Source: Acaryochloris marina S15 (GTDB taxonomy: Bacteria > Cyanobacteriota > Cyanobacteriia > Thermosynechococcales > Thermosynechococcaceae). From it: DNA of 32,000 bases. The first letter of the stretch is position 1; every line of letters starts with the position of its first letter. The translations under genes were made by a program, and so were the position numbers. This document shows positions 8,145-29,799 of the stretch, in pieces. A model generated the notes under the pieces. It did not search any database. It saw nothing but the letters and a program-made list of their open reading frames with translations, and was not told the origin of the DNA. Location of the stretch: positions 5,610,001 to 5,642,000 of the forward strand of contig NZ_CP064923.1 of NCBI RefSeq assembly GCF_018336915.1, in the 5' to 3' direction.

Positions 8145-8168
8145 AATTGGTTTGTTTTCCTCTTTTTC

Positions 8169-9980: not shown

Positions 9981-9997
9981 CTCCCATTAGCCGCGAT

Positions 9998-10768
9998 CTA
10001 GCGTCGCTGGAACCGCAATAAATCAATTGACTGGGCTGTGAGAAATAAGCCCAAGACAATGTAACTCACAAACAGAATCACGCTGCTCATATCCAAAACC
10101 CCTTGGGTTAAGGTGACGTAGTGTTTCACCAAAGACAACTGATCAAAAATAGCCACCCAAGGTTCTCCCCAGCGCTCTCCCAGCAAAAACAGCAGTGATA
10201 AGATCAAAATCAGGGCATAGGTGAGGATAATGGCCAAAATAGAGCTATCAGCCAGGGACGAAATAAACAGTCCCAAGGACAAAATGGCCGCCGCCAACAA
10301 AAAGAGTCCCAGATGGCCCACAACAAAAACTCCTGCGGTAATGGGCGGATCAGCATGGCTCAAAAACAAAATCTCCAGCACCCCCACCGGCAGCATCAAG
10401 GTCACAAATAGGGTCCACACGGCTAGGAGTTTTCCCAACGCCACAGCCCAATTCGTAATAGGAGAGGTAGCCAACAGCTCTAACGTCCGATGACGACGTT
10501 CTTCGGCATAGAGGCCCATGGATAAACTGGGCATCAGGAACATCACCAACCACCACATGCCGGACAAAAAGGATTTAAGGCTTTCTTGGGGCACATCCAC
10601 CACCTGGCCAGCTGTTTTTTGGGCGGTCCATAGCTGGACTTCACTCACAAATAAACTACAGGCCAACAGCCAAAAGACTCCAGCAATCACATAGGCCAAG
10701 GAGGATTTAAAGTACCCCTGCAGTTCCTTGCGAAAGATAGCCATGACATTGTTAAAAATCAAAATCAT
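9998..10768 (-). CDS. ABC-2 type transporter permease
   Basis: A 256-aa polytopic membrane protein. Its ATG overlaps the upstream ATPase stop in an ATGA (10765..10768), implying translational coupling. Confidence 0.8.
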   Translation of the reverse strand: MILIFNNVMAIFRKELQGYFKSSLAYVIAGVFWLLACSLFVSEVQLWTAQKTAGQVVDVPQESLKSFLSGMWWLVMFLMPSLSMGLYAEERRHRTLELLATSPITNWAVALGKLLAVWTLFVTLMLPVGVLEILFLSHADPPITAGVFVVGHLGLFLLAAAILSLGLFISSLADSSILAIILTYALILILSLLFLLGERWGEPWVAIFDQLSLVKHYVTLTQGVLDMSSVILFVSYIVLGLFLTAQSIDLLRFQRR

Positions 10769-11832
10769 GGCTTGTCCTCAGCATTAGATGGATCGGTCTC
10801 TTGCTCAGATGAATCAGGGCTATTCTCACTAACATCAGTCTTAGGCAGAGGCGGTTCAGACACATCTACCTCGGTTTCAACAGAAGTATCTAATTCTTCC
10901 TGTGTCGTGAGCTCTAAATAAATTTCTTCCAAACTAGTTCCTAACCGTCGCATCTCATACATGGCCACCCCGGCATGCACTAGGTTATGGGTCAGTTGCT
11001 GTCCCACTTGAGGATCCGGGTTACAGGTGACTCGGACTTTACGACGTTCTGAGGACTGAACTGGCGGTAACCATCGCCAAGTCAGTGCCCCTTCTAAGGA
11101 CTGTAAACAGTGCTCAACACTATCTATGGTCCCCTGTACATCCAATTCGTAGATTAACTGGTCTGTTTGTTGAGCCTTCAGATCAGCCAGGGTACTCGTC
11201 GCCACTACTTTACCGTTGTTGATGATTGCCACGCGCTGGCAGGTCATATTGACTTCTGGCAAAATATGGGTCGATAAAATGACGGTTTTATCGGCGGCCA
11301 AGGATTTAATCAAATTACGCACGTCAATAATTTGGCGAGGATCCAGACCAATGGTGGGCTCATCCAAAATAATTGCTGGAGGATTATGGACAATCGCTTG
11401 GGCAATCCCCACCCGCTGACGAAAGCCCTTGGAGAGTTTATGAATGAGGGTCTTTTGTACTTCTTGCAAATTGCACTGTTCAATGGCCCACTGCACCCGC
11501 TGGGGGCGATCGCCTGCAGATAGTCCTTTCAGACGTCCCACAAAATGTAGATAGCCCTCCACTGTCATATTGGGATAGAGGGGTGGCACTTCTGGCAAGT
11601 AGCCAATCCGCTGTCGGACGGCCATGGGATGCTCATGAACTTCAAACCCCGCAACAGAAGCTGTGCCTTTGGTTGCGGGTAAATAACCTGCCAGAATACG
11701 CATGGTGGTGGTTTTCCCTGCACCATTGGGTCCCAGTAGCCCTAGAATCTCTCCAGGCTGGGCGACGAAGCTGACATCTTGCAGGGCTGTTGTTGAGCCG
11801 TACACTTTACTGAGGTGTTCAACCTCAATCAT
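10765..11832 (-). CDS. ABC transporter ATP-binding protein with an acidic C-terminal tail
   Basis: Walker A GPNGAGKTT, signature LSKGFRQRV, Walker B AIILDEPTIGLD and H-loop STHIL. The C-terminal ~50 aa are rich in Glu, Asp, Ser and Pro. Confidence 0.92.
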   Translation of the reverse strand: MIEVEHLSKVYGSTTALQDVSFVAQPGEILGLLGPNGAGKTTTMRILAGYLPATKGTASVAGFEVHEHPMAVRQRIGYLPEVPPLYPNMTVEGYLHFVGRLKGLSAGDRPQRVQWAIEQCNLQEVQKTLIHKLSKGFRQRVGIAQAIVHNPPAIILDEPTIGLDPRQIIDVRNLIKSLAADKTVILSTHILPEVNMTCQRVAIINNGKVVATSTLADLKAQQTDQLIYELDVQGTIDSVEHCLQSLEGALTWRWLPPVQSSERRKVRVTCNPDPQVGQQLTHNLVHAGVAMYEMRRLGTSLEEIYLELTTQEELDTSVETEVDVSEPPLPKTDVSENSPDSSEQETDPSNAEDKP

Positions 11833-11950
11833 GGCGTTTTTGCACTGAGTTACGATAATCGAAATTCCCCCACCAACCTAGCTTATCGCCCGTTTGCATT
11901 CCCTGACACTCCTCAGTGTGACCCAGGCAATATTCTTTCGTTCCCAGATT

Positions 11951-12781
11951 ATGCAAAATACCCATCAGCCCATCTGGCAACTTTCCCAAGGTCATCTCAA
12001 TCTGTTGGAATCTTGTCCCCGTAAGTTTCAGCATCGCTATCTGGATCGGCTTGACACATCCGTAGGCATCGATGCCCATCCCCACCAGCAGCTCGGCTCC
12101 CAATTTCACCAACTGATGCAACAGCAGTCCTTGGGACTCCCCATTGAACCCTTGCTAGCTACAGATGATCGCTTGCAGGCGTGGTTCGAGGCTTTTCTAC
12201 AGCATCCACCCCAGATGATCGAGGGAGCACAGGACAGTGAGCATCAGCGCTTGTACTGGCAAGATGGGTTTGTGCTGGTAGCTATTTACGATTTACTGAT
12301 CCAAAATTCTAATCAGGCTCAAATTGTGGATTGGAAAACCTACGCCCTCCCCAAACAGGCCGATCGCCTGCGCAACCATTGGCAAACCCAGCTTTATCTT
12401 TATGTATTGGCAGAAACCAGTGAATATCAGCCTGACCAACTTTCTATGACCTACTGGTTTGCTGAAGCCTCGGCGCAATCCGATGGCAAAACCAATTTCC
12501 TAACCTTCCCCTACTCAGAAGCCCAGCACCAAAAAACCCAGCAATCTTTGACTGATCTACTAGCTAAGTTACGGCAGGAATTGACGGACTACGAAACGGG
12601 TGAGGCGATGCCACAAGTGGCTTTGAAAGATGGCAAATGCGTTTCCCCTAAGCACCAATGCGAGTTTGCGGAGCGATGCCAAAGACGACTGGAAGAAGAG
12701 GCAGCTATTGCGTTGCAGGAGTCATTAGCGGATATTGAGGCGATGCCAGAACTTCCTGTCGCGGATACTCTATCGGATTAG
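11951..12781 (+). CDS. PD-(D/E)XK nuclease family protein with Cas4/AddB-like 1+3 cysteine spacing
   Basis: N-terminal LSQGHLNLLESCPRKFQHRYL. Catalytic-type motifs IYDLL...IVDWKT (D...DxK). C-terminal CVSPKHQCEFAERC. The ORF opens at 11894, but ATG 11951 (MQNTHQPIW) is the more likely start. Confidence 0.7.
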   Translation: MQNTHQPIWQLSQGHLNLLESCPRKFQHRYLDRLDTSVGIDAHPHQQLGSQFHQLMQQQSLGLPIEPLLATDDRLQAWFEAFLQHPPQMIEGAQDSEHQRLYWQDGFVLVAIYDLLIQNSNQAQIVDWKTYALPKQADRLRNHWQTQLYLYVLAETSEYQPDQLSMTYWFAEASAQSDGKTNFLTFPYSEAQHQKTQQSLTDLLAKLRQELTDYETGEAMPQVALKDGKCVSPKHQCEFAERCQRRLEEEAAIALQESLADIEAMPELPVADTLSD

Positions 12782-12817
12782 AGTCTTGCCAGTTGTGGAT
12801 GGCGGGTTTACTCCGGC

Positions 12818-13426
12818 TTAAACCCATGCAAAGACATTCATTAGCAACCAGTTCTGAATTTGGGGCAGGTAATAGGCACAGAGGCCACCGGTAAGGACAC
12901 CAAATAAATGGCCCTGCCAAGAGACACCTCGTTGTAATGGCAGAATACCCCAGAGGGTGCTGCCGTACAGTAAGCCGACTAGGATTGTGGTTGCGATCGC
13001 AACCAAGCTTTGCTCTACATAGCCATTGGTCAGCAAGAACCCCAGATAGCCAAACACCAATCCACTCGCCCCAATGTGATTCGATTTAGCCCCCGCGAAC
13101 AGCCAGACGCCTAGACCTCCGATTAGCCACACTGCAGCGGTGACTATCACAAACACTTGGGTCGAGCGCACCAAGATCAGCCAGCCCAGCACCACGAGGG
13201 GCACGGTATTCATTGACAGATGACGAAGATTGCCATGGAGCAGCGGGGCCAGCAAAATTCCTCGCAAGCCCAGCCATCGGCGAGGCAAAATGCCAAATCG
13301 ATTCAGCCAGCCTTTAAATATCAAAGTATCTGCAATCTCTAGAACCCAGAGCACGCTTATAAAACCGCCCAAAATGCGACCATGTAGTGCCCATTCTGGA
13401 TAAGTCACGAAGGCATCGAAGTGCAT
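12818..13426 (-). CDS. Rhomboid family intramembrane serine protease
   Basis: A polytopic membrane protein with the catalytic GxSG motif (HIGASGLVFGYLG) and a downstream catalytic His context (WQGHLFGVLTGG). Confidence 0.8.
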   Translation of the reverse strand: MHFDAFVTYPEWALHGRILGGFISVLWVLEIADTLIFKGWLNRFGILPRRWLGLRGILLAPLLHGNLRHLSMNTVPLVVLGWLILVRSTQVFVIVTAAVWLIGGLGVWLFAGAKSNHIGASGLVFGYLGFLLTNGYVEQSLVAIATTILVGLLYGSTLWGILPLQRGVSWQGHLFGVLTGGLCAYYLPQIQNWLLMNVFAWV

Positions 13427-13509
13427 AAACGTTTCAACCCAACCCTATTGATTCAGTGAGGGGGTTCAACAGACCCTCCAACAACCTAGCAATCCTTAGG
13501 AGAAACATC

Positions 13510-13989
13510 ATGAAAAAGCAACTTTTACTGGCCTTAGCCCTGAGCGGTACCGTGACCGGAGCCATCACCACCCTGCAAGCGCCAGCCAAAGCCCAATCCC
13601 TCAATTGTGCTCAAGTTCAGAATCTAGGCACTCGCTACAACGATCAGTTACTGAATGCCGTCAATGGCAAAGTGGCCGGTAAAACCCATCGCATTAATAG
13701 ACGCAAAAAGCTGCGGATTAATCGAGTAGATGCTGTGCAGTTTAATGGCTGTCGCATGAACGTCAGAGCCAATGTCACCCTCAAACGCAAGATTCGCCGG
13801 GATGCTCATGGCACAGTCAAAATGCGGGCTAGAGTGTCTTCTTTAGATTTGGCCCAACGGAAAATCTGCTACGACAGTGCCCGAGTGACCGATGTAAACC
13901 TCAGCCGTACCCTGGGCATTGGGGAAAGAGTCTACAAGTGGGTTGCCAATATCGTCCTCCCTAACCGTGGCTGTTACACCCTCCGTTAA
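13510..13989 (+). CDS. Secreted basic hypothetical protein
   Basis: ATG 13510 is preceded by AGGAGA. A Sec-type signal peptide is present (MKKQLLLALALSGTVTGAITTLQAPAKAQ). The mature part is Arg/Lys-rich and has 4 Cys. I recognise no family. Confidence 0.55.
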   Translation: MKKQLLLALALSGTVTGAITTLQAPAKAQSLNCAQVQNLGTRYNDQLLNAVNGKVAGKTHRINRRKKLRINRVDAVQFNGCRMNVRANVTLKRKIRRDAHGTVKMRARVSSLDLAQRKICYDSARVTDVNLSRTLGIGERVYKWVANIVLPNRGCYTLR

Positions 13990-14148
13990 GGAGAACACTA
14001 TGCCGCAGGATAACTTCTCAAGAGTTGGCTCATTATCGAACAAGGCTAACTCTTGAAAGAAGGGGGTGACCAACGGTAACTGAGTATCTTTGACTCACTC
14101 AACTCTTCAGGCAGCACTTCTCTATAAATTAGAGTCAGATTTCAGTCG

Positions 14149-14529
14149 CTAGGGTAAAAGAAACTCAGGAATCTCCAAAACATGCCAATAGACCAGGCCA
14201 ACAATGACGATGGTATAGAGGGTTGAACTGCCCAGTCCTATCCAGAGTTCTCGTTGCCAGGATCGGGGTTGTTCAGCCATCACCATATCCAAAGCGCCGG
14301 ATTGCATCATCAATATCCCCAAAACATTAGAGAGCCAATATCCTGCAATGGTTGCTGGCAAAAAGGCATCAGGATAAGCCCAGCCCACGGCATAACCCAA
14401 GACATACGCAATGGGCAAATTGAAAAATAGATCGTTCCACCAAGACAGAGGCGAGAGCATATAGCCCACACCAATCAGCAGAGTATTTTTGACCGTCTTA
14501 CCGTTGAACAGTTGGGTGAGAAAAGGCAT
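14149..14529 (-). CDS. Hypothetical integral membrane protein
   Basis: A 126-aa ORF with 3-4 predicted TM helices (LLIGVGYMLSPLSWW, IAYVLGYAVGWAY, IAGYWLSNVLGILMM, LYTIVIVGLVYW). Codon usage looks like that of neighbouring genes. Confidence 0.5.
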   Translation of the reverse strand: MPFLTQLFNGKTVKNTLLIGVGYMLSPLSWWNDLFFNLPIAYVLGYAVGWAYPDAFLPATIAGYWLSNVLGILMMQSGALDMVMAEQPRSWQRELWIGLGSSTLYTIVIVGLVYWHVLEIPEFLLP

Positions 14530-14936
14530 AAAACAGATGAAACGCCGCTCAAATACGATATCAAATCAACTCAGACTGAGCTGAAACTTCACAGCCTGCC
14601 CCGTAGATGGGCTCACCCTAGATCCTGAGTTATGTGCGGAAGTCTCTTCAGTCCGCTCTAGACCTATAAAATCTTCTCTAGCAGTGAAAGCTAGATAATA
14701 TGCAAAATCTGCGTCGTATCGATGCCAAAATCGAATATTAATGAGCAGAATGTTCACATAGAACAGCTACAGTAAGGCTCGGCATGGGATTTTAACCCCT
14801 GCAATAGGTATCGCACAGCACTTTCGGTTCAACACTCCTACCCAACGTCATATCTATTGCTCATGACTCTGACGCAATTTTTCTTACCGCACTAGAGCGT
14901 CGAGTTCATTCCATCTAGAGGATTCTAGGACAACTC

Positions 14937-15164
14937 ATGAGCTATATCCATGTTCTACTAGAGTATTTAATCGGCCAGTTCCCCTGCTTGCAAGGGTGTC
15001 GATTGGTATACGATCCTGGCTCCAAAACACTTTACGTAGACTGTCAGCATCTCAACATTCACGAATTTATGGTGAAGGAAATAGAAACGATTTCCCTACT
15101 CGATATTGGGGTTGCCCATTTCATCATCACCGTCCCTAACGCAACCGATATTGTTCGAGACTAA
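14937..15164 (+). CDS. Hypothetical small protein (75 aa)
   Basis: An ATG-initiated ORF in an otherwise empty interval. I recognise no motif. Confidence 0.3.
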   Translation: MSYIHVLLEYLIGQFPCLQGCRLVYDPGSKTLYVDCQHLNIHEFMVKEIETISLLDIGVAHFIITVPNATDIVRD

Positions 15165-15554: not shown

Positions 15555-16001
15555 TGGTTACTTCTGTGAAAATTGAGAATAAATAATGAGGCTTGGTATT
15601 GGCCTGAAGCGTTTTGCTCAGAGAATAGCGTGACTGACTAATCGCTATCATCACGTTCGTTTGTTGCCACAGGAAATATTGCCACTCTTCATCCTATAAT
15701 TAAGCCCAAAAAATTCAGTATTCGTCACTACAGAGTGCAAAAGAATTTTTTGTGACAGCATTGGCTCAGGTTTCTCTAGCCATGCTCAGGTGTACTGCCT
15801 TATGAGGGTATGACCACCTGTCTTGTACATGTAGATTCTGCATGAAATGCATGTAGCTCTTGCTAGCACACTGCCGTCTTGGTGTGTATAGATACGAAAG
15901 TCAAGGGAAATTCTCCGTAATCTGCCTAAATACCCTTCAAATGCAAGGCAATTGTTTTGGCAGTCGATGACTGCCAATCGGTAGATGGAGATTGAGCATT
16001 G

Positions 16002-17411
16002 ATGACACAGACCCTAGCCAGTGGCCCAGACGAACAACATCCACTTTCGGTCCCGTCCACATCCCCTGAAGCGGTAGAAAAACGCGAACTGACCTACTCT
16101 CAATTGGTCATGTATGCCGCTCTCATTGGTGTATTTGGGGGACTGGTTGCCACAGCGTATTACTTTGTTTTAGAAACCCTGATGCATGGCGTTTGGCATA
16201 CCATACCCGATCGGGTAGTACCCTATTTTCCCAGTTGGCTCCCTCAAAAACACTACGTTTGGATTGCCTCTACCATCGGTGGCTTCTGCGTCGGGCTTGT
16301 TCTGTTCTTTATGGGCCTGCCAGGAGAGATGGCCCAAGTCGTCGATAAAATTCACAGCCCTGGCAAAATTGATATCCGCAAAACCCCAGCTATGATTATT
16401 GCGTCTTTGGTGGCAATTACCTCAGGGGGTAGTGCTGGGCCAGAAGCACCTTTGGTTCAGGTGAATGGTAGCTTTGGTAGCTGGCTGGGAGAAAAATTGC
16501 AGCTCACTACCACTTCGGTACGGGTGCTGACTTTTTGTGGCATGAGTGCAGCCTTGGGTGCTTTTTTTGGAGCGCCCATTGGTGCCGCCCTATTCGCTTT
16601 AGAAATTCCCCATCGTAAGGGTCTGGAATATTACGAAGCGATTGCCCCAGCCGTCGTTTCCGCGATTTTTTCCTTTGCTGTCTTTCGCATCAATACTGGC
16701 ATGACCATCGGCGGTTTCTATCATTTCGAAACAGTGCCACCTTTAACACCCATCAACTTACTGGAAGGATTAGTGCTGGGAGTGATTGGTGCTGGTGTTG
16801 CAGTGATGTTTATCGGCATATTTCGCTTGGTGGGCCATTTGCTCGCTCCCCTAGAACATTCTCGAATTCTCTTAGCCACCCTGGGAGGTCTAACCATTGG
16901 TTTAATTGCCTTGGCCTTTCCCCAAACGCTATTTTTCAGCGAAGAGCAGATTCATACAGTGATTGAAACGGGCGCAACCTTAGGGATTAGCTTTTTGCTA
17001 ATGATCGCAGTAGCCAAGATGTTTGCCATTAGCGTGACGCTCCATTCTGGCTTTTTAGGTGGATTTATTTTTCCTCTATTTTTCATTGGTGCAAATGTCG
17101 GTCTAGCGATTTCCCTGATGGTGCCTCAGGTTCATCCCACATTGGGCATGGTCTGCTTAATGGCTGCGGTGAATGTGGCGGTGACGAAAACTCCCGTGAG
17201 CACTAGCATTATTCTCAGTGTGTTGTCTGGTACGGCGATGCTGCCCGTCATTGTGATTGCTAGCTTTGTGAGCTTTTTACTGACAAGCCAAATTGCCATG
17301 ATCAAAACCCAACGGTCCCGAGAGTTAGAAGGATTTCCAACACCTGCTCTGTCAACCTCTGAATTGACTCCTAGCTTGACGTCTAGTCCCGCATCTCTAG
17401 CAATCGAGTAG
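16002..17411 (+). CDS. ClC-family voltage-gated chloride channel/antiporter homologue
   Basis: About 10-12 TM helices. ClC selectivity-filter-like motifs GGSAGPEAP (GxEGP-type, Glu present) and GFLGGFIFPLFFIGA (GxFxP). ATG at 16002, with an in-frame TTG at 15999. Confidence 0.85.
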   Translation: MTQTLASGPDEQHPLSVPSTSPEAVEKRELTYSQLVMYAALIGVFGGLVATAYYFVLETLMHGVWHTIPDRVVPYFPSWLPQKHYVWIASTIGGFCVGLVLFFMGLPGEMAQVVDKIHSPGKIDIRKTPAMIIASLVAITSGGSAGPEAPLVQVNGSFGSWLGEKLQLTTTSVRVLTFCGMSAALGAFFGAPIGAALFALEIPHRKGLEYYEAIAPAVVSAIFSFAVFRINTGMTIGGFYHFETVPPLTPINLLEGLVLGVIGAGVAVMFIGIFRLVGHLLAPLEHSRILLATLGGLTIGLIALAFPQTLFFSEEQIHTVIETGATLGISFLLMIAVAKMFAISVTLHSGFLGGFIFPLFFIGANVGLAISLMVPQVHPTLGMVCLMAAVNVAVTKTPVSTSIILSVLSGTAMLPVIVIASFVSFLLTSQIAMIKTQRSRELEGFPTPALSTSELTPSLTSSPASLAIE

Positions 17412-20010: not shown

Positions 20011-21219
20011 TCACCATTCTTGGAGTGCGATCGCAACTCCGTCTCGCACATCTTTTTCCACCGTATCGTCTTCTGCTAAAGCCTGGAGCTTAGTGTAGGC
20101 AAGCTCTGAAGAGATTTGTTTGAGGGCTGCGATCGCATGGAGTCTCACCCCCATATCCGCAATCCCTAATAGCCGTATCAATTCTGGTATCGCTGTCGTA
20201 TCACCTAATTGCCCCAGGGCACTGGCAATCGTTTTATTTAAGGTCAGATCCGCACCGGGGTGATGATGCAAACAATAGATCAAAGCCTGAGTAGACACCC
20301 CTTGCAATTCTGGTTGGCGATGGAGGGTTAACGCTTTAATAATCGCTTCTGCTAGGGTCAAATTCTCATCATCAATCACCTGCAGGGCAGACGTTGTATG
20401 GGGCCAAAGCTTCTGTAAAAACCGCACAGACTGGTCATTACCAATCTGGCCCAGGGCCTGAATAATCGTTAGCTTGAAGGGGGCAGGGATATTGTCAGCA
20501 CTAGCCGTCATCCGTAACGCCTGAGCAGCCGTATCAGTACCCAACCGTCCCAGGGCCAACGCCGCCCCTTGGCAGACTTGGACATCCACATCAGTGAGAA
20601 ACGGCTGAATCAACGCCACCGGATCATGATCATGCTCATAGAAGAGGTGAGCACGATAACTAATACTTGCGATCGCAACTTGGCGAACCTGGGCACTTAA
20701 ATCAGCTAATCCCTGGAGTAAGACTGGGATAATTTGTGGATCATGAAATCGGCCAAGCGTTTCGATCACCTGCAGGCGAACCGATGCATCTTCGTCAGCA
20801 ACCGCCTTGATTAAGATCGGCACAATCACTGCATCTTGCATTTGCGACAACGCAGAGACCACCAGCCCCCGAGCAGGGGATGATTCCAGTAATGTGGCTA
20901 ATGCATCTATAGATTGTGGGCCAATTTGGGCCAGCATTTGGGCGGCGATTTCAGCAACATCATCATCATCCGCTTCTTGCAATAGCTGCGTTAATGCCAT
21001 CACGGCATCCGCATGATTAAACTCGCCTAAGATTCGGGCCACAAACCATTGCAGCTCAGGATCATCGGCGTTGTTCTGGAGAAGATCAACCAAAAACGTG
21101 ATTGCTGGTTCTCCAAAGTCAGGAATTTGCTTAGCCGTTTCCCAACGAGATGCGAAATCTCCTTGTTCTAGCTTCGTTAAAACGGATATGAGTTCACTCA
21201 CAGCGGTTGGTGATTGCAT
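20011..21219 (-). CDS. HEAT-repeat (PBS-lyase HEAT-like) protein, divergent from nirA
   Basis: Repeated ~31-aa units of the form D..VR..A..ALG.(I/L)G....(I/V)..L...L throughout, for example DASVRLQVIETLGRF, SAQVRQVAIASI and DMGVRLHAIAALKQI. ATG at 21219, with an alternative TTG at 21252. Confidence 0.8.
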   Translation of the reverse strand: MQSPTAVSELISVLTKLEQGDFASRWETAKQIPDFGEPAITFLVDLLQNNADDPELQWFVARILGEFNHADAVMALTQLLQEADDDDVAEIAAQMLAQIGPQSIDALATLLESSPARGLVVSALSQMQDAVIVPILIKAVADEDASVRLQVIETLGRFHDPQIIPVLLQGLADLSAQVRQVAIASISYRAHLFYEHDHDPVALIQPFLTDVDVQVCQGAALALGRLGTDTAAQALRMTASADNIPAPFKLTIIQALGQIGNDQSVRFLQKLWPHTTSALQVIDDENLTLAEAIIKALTLHRQPELQGVSTQALIYCLHHHPGADLTLNKTIASALGQLGDTTAIPELIRLLGIADMGVRLHAIAALKQISSELAYTKLQALAEDDTVEKDVRDGVAIALQEW

Positions 21220-21262
21220 GCCACTGCTATTCTCTCCAAACTGATTAAACAATTTGTCGATA

Positions 21263-21283
21263 GATATGCAATTTCAGCATATC
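21263..21283. promoter_or_regulatory. Perfect 7-N7-7 palindrome GATATGC-AATTTCA-GCATATC in the nirA/HEAT intergenic region. It is a candidate LysR-type (T-N11-A) operator.
   Basis: Read directly. The arms are exact reverse complements. The core ATATGC-N7-GCATAT recurs at 25267..25289 upstream of the porin gene, with the same distance to an NtcA box. Confidence 0.55.
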
Positions 21284-21318
21284 TGATTTGCAGAAACTAC
21301 ATATAGGCTATCACTTTC

Positions 21319-21360
21319 GTAACGACGGATACGAACGATCGCCATTGGAGTCGCTAAGTT
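21319..21360 (+). promoter_or_regulatory. NtcA-activated (class II-like) nirA promoter: NtcA box GTAACGACGGATAC plus a -10 element TAAGTT
   Basis: A GTA-N8-TAC consensus at 21319..21332, followed after exactly 22 nt by a TAN3T hexamer at 21355..21360. This is the canonical geometry, with the NtcA box centred near -41.5. Confidence 0.75.
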
Positions 21361-21432
21361 AGTATCCCAATCGCAGAAATTGATGATGTTCAATTTTTGA
21401 TTGGTAATGACGCGAGTTCAAAAGGATCAAAC

Positions 21433-23379
21433 GTGAGTAATACCGCCCCAGCCGCGCCCAAAATGAATAAATTTGAGCGCTTCAAAGCGGAAAAAGATGG
21501 TTTGGCAATTCTGCCTGAACTGTCCCACTTTGCCCAGATCGGTTGGGAAGCCATGGATGACACCGACCTCACCCAACGCCTCAAATGGGTTGGATTATTC
21601 TTCCGCCCCGTCACCCCTGGCAAGTTCATGCTGCGGATGCGGATGCCCAACGGTATTCTCAGCGGCGGCCAAATGCGCGTCTTGGCTGAAGTGATTCAGC
21701 AGTATGGCGAAGATGGCTATGCCGATATTACCACTCGCCAAAATATCCAGTTGCGCGGTATTCACATCGAAGATATCCCCGATATTTTTAATCGATTCCA
21801 GCAGGCGGGTTTGACCAGCATGCAATCGGGAATGGACAACGTCCGCAACATTACCGGATCCCCCGTCGCTGGCCTGGATGCCAATGAACTGATTGATACC
21901 CGCGGTCTGGTCCGCAAAGTCCAGGACATGATCACCAATAACAGTCAGGGCAACCCCGCCTTCACCAATCTGCCTCGGAAATTCAACATTGCGATCGCAG
22001 GTGGTCGCGACAACTCCGTCCATGCCGAAATCAATGATATTGCCTTTGTTCCGGCTTACAAAGACGAAAAACTAGGCTTCAACGTTGTCGTCGGTGGCTT
22101 CTTTTCGGCTAAGCGCTGTGCCCCCGCTATTTCAATGAATGTTTGGGTCGATCACACCCAAGTAGTCGATATCAGCGAAGCCATTCTGATTGTTTACCGC
22201 GACAATGGTTCACGGGCCAATCGCCACCAATCTCGGATGATGTGGCTCATCGAAGAATGGGGCGTCGAACGCTTCCGAGCGGCTGTAGAAACCCAGATGG
22301 GTGTCACCCTCCAATCCGAAGCCGACAAAGATGAATTTGACTGGGACAAACGGGACCATATTGGCGTCCATGTCCAGCAACAACCTGGCTTGAACTTTGT
22401 GGGCATGCACGTCCCCGTGGGTCGTCTCTATGCCAACGATATGTTCGAGTTTGCCCGGATGGCCGAAGTCTACGGCAGTGGTGAAATTCGGCTCACCGTT
22501 GAGCAAAATGTCCTCATTCCCAATATTCCCGATTCTCGTCTTGACTCCTTTTTACAAGAGCCTTTGTTAGAGGTCTTCTCCATCAACCCCGATCCCCTCA
22601 CACGGGCCTTGGTGTCCTGTACCGGCAGCCAGTTTTGTAAGTTTGCTCTGATAGAAACCAAAAACCAAGCCGTAGCGGTGATTAATGACCTAGCAGATGA
22701 GCTAGAAGTCCCTAAACCCGTGCGTTTTCACTGGACTGGATGCCCGAATTCCTGTGGTCAACCCCAAGTCGCAGATATTGGCTTAATGGGCACCAAAACC
22801 CGCAAGGATGGCAAGACCGTCGAAGCCGTGGACTTATTCATGGGAGGCAAAGTCGGTAAAGATGCCGTACTCGGTGAAAAAGTCCAGAAAGCCATTCCCT
22901 GTGACGAGCTCAGAGGCGTCTTAAAAGATATTCTCATTCAACAGTTTGACGCTCAACCCCGATCCACTCCCCGCCCATCCCAAGGGATGGCCGGACTTTC
23001 ACGTCAACGCAGTTTGCACGGCACGGTGAGCCAGAACGGTTCTGCGCCCCCTGCTGCTGTCGTTCCGGCAGTAGCGCCTCCTGCACCAGTGGCTACACCC
23101 GCTTCGGCGGCCCAGCCCGCTGTGGTTCAGTTTGCAGCATCTGGCAAGGAGGTCAACTGTGATGACAGCCAATCCATATTAGAAATTGCGGAGGCTGCCG
23201 GAGTTGAGATTGAAAGCAGTTGCCAGTCTGGCAGTTGTGGCACCTGCGTCGCCAAGCTCGTTGAGGGTGAATTCCGATACGAAGCCGATCCAGACGGCTT
23301 AGGAGAAGATGATGCCGCATCAGGGCATATCTTGACCTGTATTGCCTACCCAGTCGGCAAAGTAGTCTTGGATGCCTAG
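21433..23379 (+). CDS. nirA: Ferredoxin-nitrite reductase fused to a C-terminal plant-type [2Fe-2S] ferredoxin domain
   Basis: NKFERFKAEKDGLA N-terminus. Siroheme/4Fe-4S cysteines SCTGSQFC and TGCPNSCGQ. A C-terminal Ala/Pro linker is followed by SSCQSGSCGTC...LTC (C-x4-C-x2-C-x~30-C). The start is ambiguous: GTG 21433 with AAGGA 6 nt upstream, ATG 21463, or the ORF opening at 21397. Confidence 0.93.
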   Translation: MSNTAPAAPKMNKFERFKAEKDGLAILPELSHFAQIGWEAMDDTDLTQRLKWVGLFFRPVTPGKFMLRMRMPNGILSGGQMRVLAEVIQQYGEDGYADITTRQNIQLRGIHIEDIPDIFNRFQQAGLTSMQSGMDNVRNITGSPVAGLDANELIDTRGLVRKVQDMITNNSQGNPAFTNLPRKFNIAIAGGRDNSVHAEINDIAFVPAYKDEKLGFNVVVGGFFSAKRCAPAISMNVWVDHTQVVDISEAILIVYRDNGSRANRHQSRMMWLIEEWGVERFRAAVETQMGVTLQSEADKDEFDWDKRDHIGVHVQQQPGLNFVGMHVPVGRLYANDMFEFARMAEVYGSGEIRLTVEQNVLIPNIPDSRLDSFLQEPLLEVFSINPDPLTRALVSCTGSQFCKFALIETKNQAVAVINDLADELEVPKPVRFHWTGCPNSCGQPQVADIGLMGTKTRKDGKTVEAVDLFMGGKVGKDAVLGEKVQKAIPCDELRGVLKDILIQQFDAQPRSTPRPSQGMAGLSRQRSLHGTVSQNGSAPPAAVVPAVAPPAPVATPASAAQPAVVQFAASGKEVNCDDSQSILEIAEAAGVEIESSCQSGSCGTCVAKLVEGEFRYEADPDGLGEDDAASGHILTCIAYPVGKVVLDA

Positions 23380-23454: not shown

Positions 23455-25047
23455 ATGTTGACAGAAATGTGGTCGTTTAAGGGCCGCTACAAAATCCTAC
23501 ACATGACTTGGTTTGCGTTTTTCCTGTCCTTCGTGGTCTGGTTTAACTTCCCACCTTTTGCTACCACGATTGGCCAAGAATTTGGGCTCACAAAGCCACA
23601 GCTTGGAACCATTGGTCTATGTAATGTTGCCCTCACGGTCCCTGCCCGCATCATCATTGGCATGGTGTTAGACCGTTATGGACCGCGTTTGACCTACTCT
23701 CTGCTGTTAATGTATGCAGCCATTCCTTGTTTAATTTTTGCTACCGCCCAAGGCTTTACTCAATTGGTGATTGGCCGATTGCTCATGGGTATTGTGGGGG
23801 CAGGATTTGTGATTGGCATCCGCATGACTGCCGAGTGGTTTCCCCCCAAAGAAGTGGGAACAGCAGAAGGCATTTATGGAGGATGGGGTAACTTTGGTTC
23901 TGCCTTCTCCGCCTTTACCATGGTTCTGGTTGCAACTGCCTTAAGCTTCATTCCAGGTGCTTTCAACTTTGGCGAAGCTCAAACCTTTACTGTTTTGGGT
24001 TTATCTTTCTCTAGCTCAGTGTTGAACTGGAGAGCAGCCATTGGCGGCTCGGGTATCATCGCTGCGATTTATGGCTTCATCTACTATGCCAATGTCCAAA
24101 ATACCCCTCCTGGAAAAGTTTATCAACGTCCTAAAAGTGCTCGAGGTCTAGAAGTCACTTCTGTCAGAGACTTCTACTTCCTGATGGTGATGAACATTCC
24201 TTTAACTGCCATTTTGATGGTACTGGCTTGGCGATTAAATAAAGTCAATTTCTTGACCCCATCCGCCATGTACATTACCTGGGTAGCTCTCTTTGGTCTC
24301 TATGCTTTCCAGTCTTACAACTGCTGGAGTGCCAATAAAGACTTGCTCTCAGGCCGGAAGCGCTATGCTCCTGAAGACCGCTATAAGTTTAAGCAAGTTG
24401 CCATCTTAGAACTGACTTACATTGTTAATTTTGGTTCTGAACTAGCTGTTGTAACTATGCTCCCTGCTTTCTTTGAAGGAACCTTTGGCCTCGACAAAGC
24501 CATGGCCGGTATTATTGCTTCTAGCTATGCCTTTATGAACCTGGTTTCCCGACCTGGTGGCGGTATTATCTCTGACAAAATGGGTAGCCGAAAGTGGACG
24601 ATGGTTATTCTCACGGGCGGCATGGGCATTGGTTATCTACTCATGAGCCAAGTCACCAGCAATTGGTGGCTACCCGCAGCCGTACTATTGACAATGGCCT
24701 GTTCCTTCTTCGTCCAAGCCTCCGAAGGATCTACCTTCGCGATTGTGCCTTTAGTTAAGCGCAGAGTCACAGGTCAAATCGCTGGCAACGTCGGCGCTTA
24801 CGGTAATGTTGGCGCTGTTGCCTACCTCACCACTCGCCTGCTATTCGTAGATGGAGCTGGTGCAACTCCCAATATGGCTGCTGTGAACTCTAGCTTTTTC
24901 CAGGTTCTAGGAACTACCGGTTTGATTGTCGCTTTCCTCTGTATCTTTTTCCTAGAAGAGCCTCAAGGCTCTTTTGCTGAAAGTCATGAAGGGGAAGAAA
25001 CATCAACTAATAGCCCTGTAGGGATCAAATATCCAACTACTCCATAG
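23455..25047 (+). CDS. nrtP: MFS nitrate/nitrite permease (NrtP/NapA, NarK family)
   Basis: A 12-TM MFS profile with NarK-type conserved segments (GGWGNFG and GNVGAYGNVGA). It sits between nirA and narB, 75 nt after nirA. Confidence 0.88.
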   Translation: MLTEMWSFKGRYKILHMTWFAFFLSFVVWFNFPPFATTIGQEFGLTKPQLGTIGLCNVALTVPARIIIGMVLDRYGPRLTYSLLLMYAAIPCLIFATAQGFTQLVIGRLLMGIVGAGFVIGIRMTAEWFPPKEVGTAEGIYGGWGNFGSAFSAFTMVLVATALSFIPGAFNFGEAQTFTVLGLSFSSSVLNWRAAIGGSGIIAAIYGFIYYANVQNTPPGKVYQRPKSARGLEVTSVRDFYFLMVMNIPLTAILMVLAWRLNKVNFLTPSAMYITWVALFGLYAFQSYNCWSANKDLLSGRKRYAPEDRYKFKQVAILELTYIVNFGSELAVVTMLPAFFEGTFGLDKAMAGIIASSYAFMNLVSRPGGGIISDKMGSRKWTMVILTGGMGIGYLLMSQVTSNWWLPAAVLLTMACSFFVQASEGSTFAIVPLVKRRVTGQIAGNVGAYGNVGAVAYLTTRLLFVDGAGATPNMAAVNSSFFQVLGTTGLIVAFLCIFFLEEPQGSFAESHEGEETSTNSPVGIKYPTTP

Positions 25048-25094: not shown

Positions 25095-25137
25095 AAAAAC
25101 GAGAGATTTGTACAATCTACAAATCTCTCGTTTTTTG
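25095..25137 (+). terminator. Rho-independent terminator after nrtP
   Basis: A perfect 13-bp stem CGAGAGATTTGTA / TACAAATCTCTCG (25100..25130) with a 5-nt loop, followed by TTTTTT. An A-tract upstream makes it potentially bidirectional. Confidence 0.8.
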
Positions 25138-25266: not shown

Positions 25267-25289
25267 TTATATGCGAAAAATGCATATAA
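25267..25289. promoter_or_regulatory. Palindrome TTATATGC-GAAAAAT-GCATATAA upstream of the porin gene. It shares the core of the nirA-upstream palindrome.
   Basis: Read directly: 8-bp perfect arms with a 7-nt spacer. The core ATATGC-N7-GCATAT is identical to that at 21264..21282. Confidence 0.55.
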
Positions 25290-25323
25290 TTTGTGCGAAT
25301 TATTCATATCTTTATCCTTATTT

Positions 25324-25365
25324 GTTCGAAGAGATACAAATCGGGATAGAGGTATTCATTACACT
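25324..25365 (+). promoter_or_regulatory. Putative NtcA-type promoter of the porin gene: GTTCGAAGAGATAC plus -10 TACACT
   Basis: A GTT-N8-TAC box at 25324..25337, one mismatch from GTA-N8-TAC. After exactly 22 nt there is a TAN3T hexamer at 25360..25365. The box centre lies 52.5 bp from the palindrome centre, the same distance as at nirA. Confidence 0.55.
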
Positions 25366-25437
25366 TAGCGGACGCTGAACTTAATTAATATTCTTCAAGT
25401 TCCGCTCAATAATTCGGTGTGAGGTTACTGAAACAAC

Positions 25438-27246
25438 ATGTCAAAACGTTTGTCCTGGTATCGGCTACTTTTTAATACCAGCGTTTTAGGAATTGCAATG
25501 GTCAATTGCATTCCTGCCCAAGCAGCACCCGAGACATCTAATCTTGATGTTACGGCTGAACAATTGGACATCGCTCCCAGTGAGGAAGTCATCCCTACAA
25601 CACTACCGTCTGTAGATGAGGCCCTGGAACTCGCGCAAGCAGTGGAAACACCCACTCTAGCCAGTCCCCCTACTTCTATTGCAGACATCGCTGGCAATCA
25701 AAACGATCCGTATTTTCCTTCGGATCCGAGTTTGCATGCCTCTGACGCCTCTCTTGGTCAGGTAACGTCTGTCTCCCAACTGTCTGATGTACAGCCTGAT
25801 GACTGGGCTTTCCAAGCCATTCAGTCTTTGGTGGAACGCTATGGATGTGTGGCTGGTTACCCCAACGGTACATTTCGTCCCAGTCGAGCCATGTCGCGAC
25901 GTGAAGCTGCGGCGTTGGTCAATGCTTGCTTAGATAACTTGAGCAATCGGTTTGCCACGAAAGAAGATTTGGATGCCCTCAAAGCGTTGCAAGATGAATT
26001 TGCCGCTGAACTCGCTACCCTTAGAGGCCGCGTCGATGGTTTAGAAGCGAGAGTCGCAACCGTAGAATCCCAACAATTCTCTACCACCACTAAATTAAAC
26101 GGGGAAGCTATTTTTGCTTTCAGTGGTGTTGCTGGCGATAACGCCACTACTGGTGCTGATATTAGTGGGCGAGTCTCTCTAAACCAGAGAACCCGTTTAA
26201 ATTTCATCACCAGCTTTACCGGTAAAGATCGGTTATATACCCGACTACAAACCTCTAATCGTCCTGTCAACTTTAGCGACGGTGCTATCCCTGGAATTAT
26301 TGACAATACAGGGACTCTGCAAACTCGGGTTGCCTTTGACACCGGCAACACCAACAACAGCGTTATCCTCGATCGCTTAGACTACAAATTCCCCATTGGT
26401 GACAAACTCAATGTTACGGTCTTTGCCAATGCGGCCTTCCACCATTACTACGCCACCACCGTCAACCCTTACTTTGAAGGATTTGGTGGTGGTAAAGGTG
26501 CCCTCTCATTCTTTGGTGAGCGCAACCCCATCTATCGAATTGGTACGGTTGCTATTCCCAATGTTGCGGGCGTCGGCACCTCTTACATGTTCAACAAAGA
26601 AAATGATTTTCGCCTTGACTTAGGCTACTTAGCGGGTCGTGCTAACCAAGCAACAACCACGGCCTTGGCCAATGGCGAAAATGAAGGTGGGTTATTTGGT
26701 GGGACCTATAGCGCTTTAGCTCAACTCAGCATTAAACCCACAGAAGGGTCTCAGGTTGGCTTAACCTATGTCCGTAATGAAGCCCCTGATGGCTTAATGA
26801 GGTTTGGCACAGGAACCGTCTTTTCCAATAATCCTTTTGGCGGTGCTAATAATATTACTGGTGATTCCTTCGGCTTTGAAGGAACCCTCAAATTAGCAGA
26901 TTGGGTCGCTGTAGGCGGTTGGTTTGGCTATACGATTGCCCGCGAAGACAATACCACCAATAAAGCAGACATTATCAATGCTGCCATTAACTTTGCCTTT
27001 CCTGATCTCGGGATGGAAGGAGCCACCGGTGGCTTAATTGTTGGAGTACCGCCAACAGTAATTAATAATGATGTCGCTGCTAGGGAGAACCCCGATCAAA
27101 CCTTCCATTTGGAAGCTTTATATTCCTTCCCTGTTAATGACTTCATCACCATTACGCCTGGCGTGATTTATCTCATTAATCCTGAAGGCAACTCCGCCAA
27201 CAGTGACATCTTAGTTGGTGTCATTCGGACGACATTTAAGTTCTAA
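25438..27246 (+). CDS. Cyanobacterial outer-membrane porin: signal peptide, SLH domain, coiled coil and an OprB-like beta-barrel
   Basis: Signal peptide ...AMVNCIPAQAAP. SLH motif DVQPDDWAFQAIQSLVERYGCVAGYPNGTFRPSRAMSRREAAALV. Coiled coil LDALKALQDEFAAELATLRGRVDGLEARV. Alternating beta-strand pattern ending in a C-terminal aromatic (...RTTFKF). Confidence 0.88.
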   Translation: MSKRLSWYRLLFNTSVLGIAMVNCIPAQAAPETSNLDVTAEQLDIAPSEEVIPTTLPSVDEALELAQAVETPTLASPPTSIADIAGNQNDPYFPSDPSLHASDASLGQVTSVSQLSDVQPDDWAFQAIQSLVERYGCVAGYPNGTFRPSRAMSRREAAALVNACLDNLSNRFATKEDLDALKALQDEFAAELATLRGRVDGLEARVATVESQQFSTTTKLNGEAIFAFSGVAGDNATTGADISGRVSLNQRTRLNFITSFTGKDRLYTRLQTSNRPVNFSDGAIPGIIDNTGTLQTRVAFDTGNTNNSVILDRLDYKFPIGDKLNVTVFANAAFHHYYATTVNPYFEGFGGGKGALSFFGERNPIYRIGTVAIPNVAGVGTSYMFNKENDFRLDLGYLAGRANQATTTALANGENEGGLFGGTYSALAQLSIKPTEGSQVGLTYVRNEAPDGLMRFGTGTVFSNNPFGGANNITGDSFGFEGTLKLADWVAVGGWFGYTIAREDNTTNKADIINAAINFAFPDLGMEGATGGLIVGVPPTVINNDVAARENPDQTFHLEALYSFPVNDFITITPGVIYLINPEGNSANSDILVGVIRTTFKF

Positions 27247-27279: not shown

Positions 27280-27314
27280 TAGGGAACGAAAAATTTTCGT
27301 TCCCTAATTTTTTT
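27280..27314 (+). terminator. Rho-independent terminator after the porin gene
   Basis: A 13-bp palindromic stem TAGGGAACGAAAA / TTTTCGTTCCCTA (27280..27306) followed by A plus a T7 run (27308..27314). Confidence 0.8.
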
Positions 27315-27474
27315 ACCTTCTCTAATTTTTGGGATAGTTTTTCTAACTCCACAACACGGTCTCCAGGCTTGAAGATCGATCACATGGGCTTTATTGCAAA
27401 ATTAGTGCATTTACAGGGGCATGATTAAAGTGCATACAAACAATGTTGAGAACGCATTACGCAGATCAGGAACC

Positions 27475-27516
27475 GTAGCTAATCTTACAATTTTTGCCTG
27501 AAATGTTGATGATAAT
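27475..27516 (+). promoter_or_regulatory. NtcA-activated narB promoter: GTAGCTAATCTTAC plus -10 GATAAT
   Basis: A perfect GTA-N8-TAC at 27475..27488. After exactly 22 nt there is a -10-like GATAAT at 27511..27516. It lies ~60 nt upstream of the narB ATG. Confidence 0.7.
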
Positions 27517-27573: not shown

Positions 27574-29799
27574 ATGACTGAACCTGTCAAAACTTTATGT
27601 CCTTACTGTGGTGTGGGCTGTGGATTAGAAGTACTGCCTCCGGCTTTGCCAGGTAAGCCTGTCAATCGAGATAGCGCGGGAACCCCCATCTGGCGAGTGC
27701 GGGGCGATCAAGCCCACCCTTCCAGCAAGGGCCAAGTTTGTGTCAAAGGAGCAACGGTTGCCGGCGCATTAGATAAAGATCGGCTGCGCTACCCGATGAT
27801 GCGGGATTCTCTAGACCAACCGTTTCGGCAGGTCACATGGGACGAAGCTTTAGAGCGGGTGGTGAGTGAACTTAAAACCGTTCATGCCAACCAAGGTCCA
27901 GACGCCATTTGCATGTATGGCTCCGGGCAGTTTCAAACCGAAGATTATTACATCGCTCAAAAGTTATTGAAAGGTTGTCTAGGCACTAATAATTTTGATG
28001 CCAATTCTCGTCTTTGCATGTCTTCTGCAGTGGCAGGGTATATCCAAAGTTTTGGCTCTGATGGCCCACCTCCTTGCTATGACGACTTGGAGCTGACGGA
28101 CTGTGCTTTTTTAATCGGGACTAATACAGCAGAATGTCATCCGATCGTTTTTAATCGGTTGCTCAAGCATCACAAGAAAAACCGCCACGTCAAAATGATT
28201 GTGGTTGACCCTAGACGTACCAAAACAGCAGAGAAAGCCGATCTGCATCTGGCCATTAAGCCTGGCACAGATATTAATTTGCTCAACGGCATTGCCCACT
28301 TGCTGATGCGTTGGGGGAAGTTTGACTCTCTTTTTATTGATGAATGTACTTCTGGTTTCGCCAGCTTTGCTAGTGTTATCAGTCAATATCCACCGGAATT
28401 AGTCGCCAGAGACTGTGGCATTCGTGTCGATGAACTCGAAAAAGCAGCCCAATACTGGAGCGAATCCCAGCGAGTGCTATCCCTGTGGTCCATGGGGGTC
28501 AATCAATCAACGGAAGGGACTGCCAAATGCCGCACCATCATTAATTTGCACTTGATGACGGGCACCATCGGTAAACCTGGTTCAGGCCCCTTTTCCTTAA
28601 CCGGGCAGCCGAATGCCATGGGAGGCCGTGAAGCGGGTGGATTATCTCATATTCTGCCCGGGTACCGGGTCGTCAAGAATCCTCAGCATCGTCAGGATGT
28701 AGAAAAAGCTTGGCAACTACCAGAAGGTAGTATTTCTCCTCAGCCCGGTTTAACAGCTTGGGATATGATTCTAGGTCTAGAAAACCAAAGCGTCGGTTTT
28801 TTCTGGGTAGCTGCAACCAATCCCGCTGTTAGTATGCCAGATATTAAACGCACCAAAGCGGCGTTATTGAAATCTCGGTTTACGATCTGTCAGGATGCTT
28901 ACTATCCCACAGAAATGGCCGATTATGCCCATGTGTTGCTACCGGCAGCCCAGTGGAGCGAGAAAACGGGCATCATGACGAATTCCGAACGCGTAGTCAC
29001 CTATTGTCCTACTTTTCGAGAGCCCGTAGGAGAAGCCCGAGCTGATTGGGACATTTTTGCTGAAGTCGGACGTCGCTTAGGGTTTGAGCGGGAGTTTGCC
29101 TTTGCCAATTCTGCAGAGGTGTATACCGAGTTTGTGAAACTAACCCGCGATCGCATCTGCGATATGAGCGGCCTCAGCCATGATCTCCTGAAAAATGGCC
29201 CCATTCAATGGCCCTTTCCCGCCTGTGCTCTAGGCGATACCATCGATGCCACCGCAACCGGCAAACGACTCTATACCAATCATCGATTTCCCACAGAAGA
29301 TGGCCGGGCCCGGTTCTCATCCTTTCATGCCAAAGGATTGGCTGAACCCCCCGACCCTGATTATCCTTTTGTACTAACGACGGGCCGCCTCTACGGTCAT
29401 TGGCATACCCAAAGCCGCACGGGACGGATTGAGAAGGTGGCCGGGATGTATCCCAATCCCTTCGTTGAGATCCATCCTCGGGATGCCGCCCGTATTGGCA
29501 TTCAGGAGGGGGAAGTATTGGAAGTGCGATCGCGTCGTGGCTTTGCTCGCGTTCCCACCAAAATTACCAAAGCCATTGCCCCTGGCACCGTCTTCATTCC
29601 CATGCATTGGGGAGCTTTATGGGCCAAACATGCTGAGGTGAATGCCTTAACCCATCCTGAAGCCTGTCCCATCTCTCTAGAACCAGAGCTGAAAGCCTGT
29701 GCCGTTCAGCTTATCCCCGCTAGCGCTTTACCTGCAGATTCTGAAGAAAATGCTGTGGAGCGACCTGCTGCATCCCTCGTCGCTCCTTCCCATTCTTAA
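27574..29799 (+). CDS. narB: Assimilatory ferredoxin-nitrate reductase (molybdopterin oxidoreductase)
   Basis: N-terminal 4Fe-4S motif CPYCGVGCG...C(VKG). MopB-family domains along the full length. C-terminal molybdopterin dinucleotide-binding region ([26 protein letters not shown]). Confidence 0.93.

Follow-up and report, generated by a model that had tools for sequence, protein, structure and literature searches.

An SLH-OprB porin lineage linked to nitrate-assimilation genes and predicted NtcB/NtcA promoters in cyanobacteria

How nitrate crosses the outer membrane of cyanobacteria usually receives no attention or is taken to be unspecific. A locus in Acaryochloris marina S15 raises the question of whether this step can instead belong to the nitrate-assimilation system. 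We analyzed a 32,000-nucleotide (nt) stretch of this genome (NCBI RefSeq assembly GCF_018336915.1, contig NZ_CP064923.1, positions 5,610,001 to 5,642,000), called the window below, in which a gene for a 602-amino-acid (aa) porin with SLH and OprB domains (25438-27246, + strand) stands between the nitrate permease gene nrtP and the nitrate reductase gene narB. A preliminary description of this DNA, made from the sequence alone, put the porin forward as a candidate nitrate/nitrite channel tied to the cluster. Conserved gene neighborhoods across a porin clade and predicted composite promoters now support that candidacy. We consider it probable that the porin is an outer-membrane channel of the nitrate regulon that raises permeability to nitrate and nitrite.

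The window porin falls into a distinct clade within its family. Its closest relatives are Acaryochloris porins with 93-73% identity, and the 93% cluster contains AM1_2986 of A. marina MBIC11017 together with proteins from several other A. marina strains. Bit scores of the homologs fall stepwise after match 46. Of 47 clade members, 41 carry an FHHYY motif (aa 334-338), which none of the 74 next-ranked paralogs has. Seven residues (T302, R313, F334, G348, T370, P450, and G493) are at least 90% conserved in the clade, with three invariant, and are rare in paralogs. F334, G348, and T370 sit in a long loop between strands 5 and 6 of the structural model (aa 332-376), which may be the constriction loop. 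A neighbor-joining tree of 220 porins bore out the separate clade that the preliminary description had suggested looking for: the FHHYY proteins are monophyletic (59 tips, no paralogs inside), on a short branch drawn without bootstrap.

We compared the genomic contexts of 14 clade members from different genomes, 13 of which are informative (L086 lies at a contig end). The clade porin adjoins nitrate-assimilation genes in 12 of these 13 loci, and four arrangements account for them. The order nirA-nrtP-porin(-narB) is found in the window, in Acaryochloris IP29b_bin.137 (L004, 87% porin identity), and in a metagenome (L090, 78%), so that it is not unique to strain S15. Most commonly, the porin heads a series in which it is followed by ntcB, a cnaT-like gene, mobA, and sometimes narM (L001 from Altericista, L002 from Lyngbya confervoides, L005, L087, L098, and L099). 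Two loci have nrtP divergent from a porin that is followed by ntcB (L096 and L097). In L006, the operon running from nirA through nrtBACD to narB is divergent from a HEAT-repeat gene that is followed by the porin. Orthologs in other families, at 55-64% identity, lie beside ntcB-cnaT-mobA-narM, nrtP, or the nirA operon.

The neighboring genes were assigned by family matches. NCBIfam holds no NtcB model, and the LysR gene was named through a PDB entry: it matches the Anabaena NtcB chain of 8H3V with an E-value of 6.5e-124, compared with 5.6e-25 for the next LysR protein. The MobA (NF002741) and NarM (TIGR02664) neighbors score above curated NCBIfam cutoffs. The glycosyl-transferase-3 neighbor matches NF005635, and we take it to be cnaT-like.

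Paralogs provided a negative control for this linkage. A scan of genome contigs with the clade alignment yielded, among the matches listed, mostly paralogs of 38-47% identity and one ortholog (L006), and we reused the paralog loci as controls. A pattern scan of metagenomes with the degenerate clade motif FHHYY..T.NP returned 7 loci, of which only L090 is genuine. Only two of approximately 84 paralog loci have a nitrate gene within ±10 kb: L007 (47% identity, with the porin followed by ntcB) and L081 (43%, 3.6 kb from ntcB-cnaT). No nitrate gene lies near P0047, a member of the sister clade. The synteny that the preliminary description left to be checked is therefore a property of the clade, and the paralogs screened are unlinked apart from these two.

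The position of the porin within the cluster appears to be a later development than the linkage itself. Nitrate-linked loci are distributed over all porin subclades in the tree, which suggests that the porin-ntcB order is probably ancestral and that the intra-cluster position in Acaryochloris is probably derived. The porin-ntcB order occurs in several subclades, and a porin inside nirA-nrtP-narB was seen only in the Acaryochloris lineage. The earlier emphasis on a porin inside the cluster thus holds for linkage to nitrate genes, which is clade-wide, and not for placement between nirA and narB, which was seen only in that lineage. The NirA protein of MBIC11017 is AM1_2984 (PMC4755962). Together with the porin tag AM1_2986, this locus-tag numbering fits a nirA-nrtP-porin order in MBIC11017, the type strain, as well. 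A mobile-element or recent-insertion origin of the porin gene was rejected, as flanking repeats are absent and both GC content and GC content at third codon positions (GC3) are normal. A strain-specific arrangement with signs of recent insertion, which the preliminary description had named as counterevidence, is not what we found.

Two further features of clade neighborhoods were observed. One subclade has a conserved gene pair upstream of the porin (L088, 7394-9833; L098, 3762-6188; L099, 7434-9833), which consists of a ketoacyl-synthase gene and a gene for a 356-372-aa protein without a Pfam or NCBIfam match. L096 contains a second SLH-OprB porin gene (13398-15164, + strand), whose distant product shares 33% identity with that of the window; transcribed divergently from this gene is a urt-like ABC transporter (7780-12948, - strand) with Peripla_BP_5/6, two BPD_transp_2, and two ABC_tran domains. 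Porins may be paired with other nitrogen-uptake systems too, possibly one for urea.

The predicted promoter of the porin gene resembles that of Anabaena nirA (PnirA). In the cryo-electron microscopy structure of the Anabaena NtcA-NtcB-RNA polymerase complex, the NtcB box ATGC-N7-GCAT-N7-ATGC-N7-GCAT lies 15 base pairs (bp) upstream of an NtcA box at -48 to -35 (10.1101/2022.10.10.511513). Upstream of the window porin we found an NtcB-like box (25271-25307, +; ATGC-gaaaaat-GCAT-ataattt-GTGC-gaattat-TCAT, 14/16 matches), a 16-bp spacer, and the NtcA-like box GTTCGAAGAGATAC (25324-25337, +; one mismatch to GTAN8TAC), located 114 nt upstream of the ATG. The predicted -10 hexamer TACACT (TAN3T; 25360-25365, +) lies 22 nt behind the NtcA-like box. 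The layout thus matches PnirA, with its NtcB box, spacer of about 15 bp, GTA-N8-TAC, interval of about 22 bp, and -10 element; it differs in that the predicted promoter would drive a porin gene, has a 16-bp spacer, and departs from the consensus at two positions of the NtcB box and at one of the NtcA box. The apparent nitrogen regulation of the porin claimed earlier can accordingly be given a concrete form, an NtcB box and an NtcA-like box in PnirA geometry, as a prediction from sequence.

The same elements precede two neighboring genes. nirA has an NtcB-like box (21266-21302, +; ATGC-n7-GCAT-n7-TTGC-n7-ACAT, 14/16) and, after a 16-bp spacer, the perfect GTAN8TAC box GTAACGACGGATAC (21319-21332, +). 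narB has an NtcB-like box (27421-27457, +; ATGA-n7-GCAT-n7-ATGT-n7-GCAT, 14/16) and, after a 17-bp spacer, the perfect box GTAGCTAATCTTAC (27475-27488, +). The window holds three perfect GTAN8TAC sites, and three per 32 kb is the chance expectation.

Conservation among orthologs distinguishes the porin promoter. In 10 orthologs, the start codon is preceded at 107-117 nt by a GT-N9-TAC box, which is the perfect GTAN8TAC in 7 of them, and a TAN3T hexamer follows the box by 20-24 nt. This NtcA-type geometry is present in 13/14 clade promoters versus 7/85 paralogs (Fisher p 1.6e-10). An NtcB box with at least 12/16 matches at a 15-16-bp spacer is found in 11/14 clade promoters; none of 4200 shuffles reached 12. 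We searched 1.68 Mb of collected locus DNA on both strands and found 23 composite NtcB+NtcA sites. Thirteen lie upstream of porins (11 in the clade and 2 outside it, in L077 and L081), and eight lie upstream of nitrate genes (4 nirA, 2 narB, and the 2 divergent nrtP genes of L096 and L097). Of the remaining two, one lies upstream of a CLC gene in the window and the other, in L018, points the wrong way. The composite is thus highly specific in this DNA. It persists where the upstream sequences cannot otherwise be aligned, and the unlinked ortholog L088 retains it. These motifs strongly support the in silico prediction that the porin gene belongs to the NtcA/NtcB nitrate regulon at any location.

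The two porins outside the clade with a composite promoter were found in Symploca SIO3C6 (L077; box at 8489, porin at 8597-10384) and Moorena SIO3I8 (L081; box at 9240, porin at approximately 9605-11506). They show 43-44% identity. When we looked for shared pore residues in these two proteins, the overlap was only partial and uninformative. The predicted composite promoter may occur in a second porin lineage.

Porin leaders share additional short elements. One of them, GTGTGAGG(A), precedes the porin start codon by 8-15 nt (25416-25424 in the window) and is conserved in the distant orthologs L001, L005, L006, and L086. It resembles a Shine-Dalgarno sequence but exceeds the expected length. Words like GAACTTAA recur in the leaders too, and Rfam has no matching family.

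Within the SLH-OprB family, the protein itself is ordinary. It begins with a signal peptide (aa 1-29; N-terminus MSKRLSWYRLLFNTSVLGIAMVNCIPAQA, followed by A, with cleavage after AQA) and ends in ...RTTFKF, whose terminal Phe is the aromatic end typical of outer-membrane beta-barrels; both termini were judged by eye. A disordered, low-complexity linker separates the signal peptide from a single SLH domain (aa 116-158, nt 25783-25911; PF00395, 39.8 bits, cutoff 20.8). For the SLH region, matches were obtained with OmpM1 (chains 8BYS and 8BYM), and in the model a long helix or coiled coil (approximately aa 175-212) follows this region. The OprB domain is matched over its full length (PF04966, 163 bits), and NCBIfam NF033921 (por_somb) scores 503 bits against a cutoff of 100. 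An AlphaFold2 model built from 41 orthologs has a 16-stranded barrel at aa 217-601 with a predicted local distance difference test score (pLDDT) of about 90. Its best fold match in the PDB is Pseudomonas putida OprB (4GEY, E 6.4e-12). Other 16-strand porins follow, including OprP and OprO (ranks 3, 4, and 8), as does the SLH-anchored OmpM1. We describe the porin as a 16-stranded outer-membrane channel of the OprB type, anchored to peptidoglycan through its SLH domain.

We compared the porin to channels that have been studied in other bacteria. The major outer-membrane proteins Slr1841, Slr1908, and Slr0042 of Synechocystis sp. PCC 6803 have the same signal peptide, SLH anchor, coiled coil, and OprB barrel; the window porin belongs to a separate clade with FHHYY, R313, T302, and T370. 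Proteins like Slr1841 have been described as letting inorganic ions through and keeping organic solutes out (10.1101/2020.03.24.006684). In the part of the literature available to us, the Synechocystis porins are discussed for iron uptake and envelope integrity. We found no reported link between them and NtcB or nitrate clusters in open-access literature. Pseudomonas OprB, after which the Pfam family is named, is the best structural match. It lacks the SLH anchor and is carbohydrate-selective, whereas the window porin has nitrate genes, not sugar genes, as its context. Organic nutrients reportedly do not get through cyanobacterial OprB-type members (10.1101/2020.03.24.006684).

Porins of Pho regulons offer a regulatory parallel. 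Pseudomonas OprP and OprO, Escherichia coli PhoE, and Prochlorococcus PMM0709 follow the same logic, in which a 16-strand porin sits in the uptake regulon of a single oxyanion nutrient and shares its regulation. In the system proposed here, the nutrient would be nitrate or nitrite and the regulators would be NtcA and NtcB. OprP is defined by an arginine/lysine ladder. OprP and OprO share approximately 11-13% sequence identity with the window porin, and their likeness to it is one of fold class only. PMM0709 ('PhoE', with an OprB domain) is strongly induced by phosphorus starvation (PMC5451487).

Gene order, domains, fold class, membership in the clade, and the conserved neighborhood and promoter motifs are what we observed, and from them we propose the following model. 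The porin gene would form a monocistronic unit between two terminators with its own class-II NtcA-type promoter, which NtcA and NtcB would bind and use in vivo. Expression would rise once two signals coincide: a need for nitrogen, reported by 2-oxoglutarate through NtcA, and the availability of nitrite or nitrate, sensed through NtcB. The porin would then make the cyanobacterial outer membrane, which is otherwise tight, more permeable to nitrate and nitrite. Both ions would enter the periplasm, be handed to NrtP (or NrtABCD in other genomes), and be reduced by NarB and NirA. Permeation of these ions is what we infer from the genetic context and from the description of the family as inorganic-ion channels, and any selectivity would be a further inference. 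More tentatively, we suggest a broader version, which we think possible and rather less than probable: the clade would be a conserved, NtcB/NtcA-controlled channel lineage selective for nitrate and nitrite, assimilation would run as a regulated three-compartment pathway (the porin, then NrtP or NrtABCD, then NarB and NirA), and the NtcB regulon would reach beyond the classical nir operon.

Several observations weigh against the proposed role in nitrate uptake. Expression, binding, or transport data for clade members were not found in open-access full text. In L088, nitrate genes are missing from the 10 kb around the ortholog, the clade loci are related by descent so that the counts are not fully independent, and the clade branch in the neighbor-joining tree has a length of only 0.041, without bootstrap. 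The NtcA-like box GTTCGAAGAGATAC of the window porin reads GTT instead of GTA, and the promoters of L096, L097, and L098 have an NtcA box and no NtcB box in the porin orientation. Bulk barrel charge does not differ significantly between the clade and paralogs, and there is thus no sequence-level argument for anion selectivity. The last two points also fit an unselective small-ion channel that is induced by NtcA when nitrogen is scarce, makes the outer membrane more permeable to every nitrogen source and to other ions, and has no particular relation to nitrate or nitrite. NtcA is known to bind other SLH-OprB promoters, those of slr1841 in Synechocystis (chromatin immunoprecipitation sequencing; PMC5714215) and all7614 in Anabaena (PMC3898017), and the L096 porin beside the urt-like ABC transporter suggests a broader theme of nitrogen-linked porins. 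A general nitrogen-stress porin would leave two features of the clade unaccounted for. An NtcB box in PnirA geometry accompanies the NtcA box in 11/14 clade promoters, and the neighbors are ntcB, cnaT-like, mobA, narM, nrtP, nirA, and narB rather than amt, urt, or gln genes. To our knowledge, NtcB is an activator of nitrate-assimilation genes only. The NtcB boxes and the exclusively nitrate-related neighbors argue against this explanation, which we consider fairly unlikely.

The same two features argue against the porin being a passenger, that is, an ordinary structural or major porin placed beside nitrate genes by historical accident. The family is abundant, multi-copy, and scattered in cyanobacterial genomes, and L088 demonstrates that the gene can reside elsewhere. 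A passenger would hardly be expected in four independent arrangements that all lie beside nitrate genes, in subclades with 55-93% identity, while nearly all paralog controls are unlinked, nor would it be expected to keep a nirA-type composite promoter where the upstream sequence is unalignable. The passenger explanation is already disfavored, and we regard it as very improbable. A supply channel for cofactors deserves slightly more credence and is still quite improbable. Such a porin would admit molybdate for the molybdenum-bis(molybdopterin guanine dinucleotide) of NarB or iron for the Fe-S clusters and sirohaem of NirA and NarB, instead of nitrate. This idea draws on the most common arrangement, in which the porin heads a cluster with the nitrate-reductase maturation genes mobA and narM, and on the NCBI name 'iron uptake porin' (NF033921). 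That name is given to every paralog alike and hence says nothing about the clade. Beside clade members we saw neither mod nor fut transporter genes, and the neighborhoods of the clade loci obtained showed no iron-transport genes. The porin adjoins a nitrate permease gene in Acaryochloris, L096, and L097, and the flux demand for nitrate should exceed that for molybdate by orders of magnitude, judging from established physiology. This adjacency and the difference in demand argue against cofactor supply. We therefore continue to favor a nitrate-regulon channel for nitrate and nitrite.

What appears to be new is an SLH-OprB lineage that is, by prediction, wired into the nitrate regulon; the protein family itself is known. 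The preliminary description knew of no characterized example. Open-access full text likewise yielded no cyanobacterial porin linked to nitrate uptake or to clusters with nrtP, narB, nirA, or ntcB, and an older description in a subscription journal is possible. According to a 2026 preprint, Synechococcus has no known porin dedicated to nitrogen compounds. A mutant of the Anabaena porin all5191 has a nitrogen-related growth phenotype. AM1_2986 appears among genes with putative CRP sites in a computational list from 2009, and the listed site is probably the NtcA-like box because NtcA is a CRP-family protein. A lineage of this kind would bring an outer-membrane component into the textbook nitrate pathway and make the NtcB regulon larger than is known at present. 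Efforts to explain why cyanobacteria differ in their affinity for nitrate, or to engineer nutrient uptake, would gain a concrete target. The hypothesis is directly testable with one gene (AM1_2986 and its orthologs), one promoter fragment, and one phenotype.

The other genes of the window cluster lie on the same strand as the porin. nirA (21397-23379, +) codes for a ferredoxin-nitrite reductase (NF007125, 882 bits), and its true start is probably the GTG at 21434. nrtP (23455-25047, +) codes for a NarK-family nitrate/nitrite permease of the major facilitator superfamily (TIGR00886, 394 bits, cutoff 311.7). narB (27574-29799, +) codes for an assimilatory molybdopterin nitrate reductase with the Pfam domains Molybdop_Fe4S4, Molybdopterin, and Molydop_binding; the closest NCBIfam models are assimilatory nitrate reductases and Fdh-alpha. 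An intrinsic-terminator-like hairpin with an 18-bp perfect stem followed by a T-run lies 3' of nrtP (25095-25135, +; folding free energy -25 kcal/mol, z-score -7.5). A second one, with a 12-bp stem and a T7 tail, lies 3' of the porin (27280-27306, +; -16.7 kcal/mol, z-score -5.0). The open reading frames, family matches, and both hairpins confirm the order described at the outset of this work (nirA, nrtP, terminator, porin, terminator, narB, all on one strand), and the porin coordinates given there coincide exactly with the open reading frame. Most orthologs have a strong hairpin 3' of the porin, so the porin is usually its own transcription unit. A generic scan for sigma-70 promoters and terminators stayed at background level and missed the nrtP hairpin, and motif-specific tests were used instead. 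An Rfam search of the window and the porin leader found no known RNA element, only trivial hairpin matches at the nrtP terminator.

Two observations concern nirA and its surroundings. The NirA protein carries a C-terminal plant-type 2Fe-2S ferredoxin domain (aa 582-652; Fer2, PF00111, 56 bits; TIGR02008), and the same fusion is present in L004. A similar C-terminal extension has reportedly been described for the NirA of Plectonema boryanum. A HEAT-repeat (PBS-lyase-like) gene is divergent from nirA in three genomes (window, 20011-21252, -; L004, 4573-5751, -; L006, 8392-9576, +), and in L006 the porin lies directly behind it. The HEAT-repeat gene has the position of nirB in Synechococcus elongatus.

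A gene for a CLC-family protein (Voltage_CLC; 15999-17411, +) lies approximately 5 kb upstream of nirA and is preceded by a predicted composite promoter (15829-15895). This promoter comprises an NtcB-like box (ATGT-n7-GCAT-n7-ATGT-n7-GCTA, 12/16), a 16-bp spacer, the NtcA-like box GTGTGTATAGATAC, and, after 22 nt, TAATCT. The third perfect GTAN8TAC site of the window, GTATTCGTCACTAC (15718-15731), lies approximately 280 nt upstream of the CLC gene and lacks an NtcB box. The CLC product may be an anion channel or antiporter under NtcB/NtcA control, perhaps for nitrate or nitrite, and the NtcB regulon of this genome might extend to it as well.

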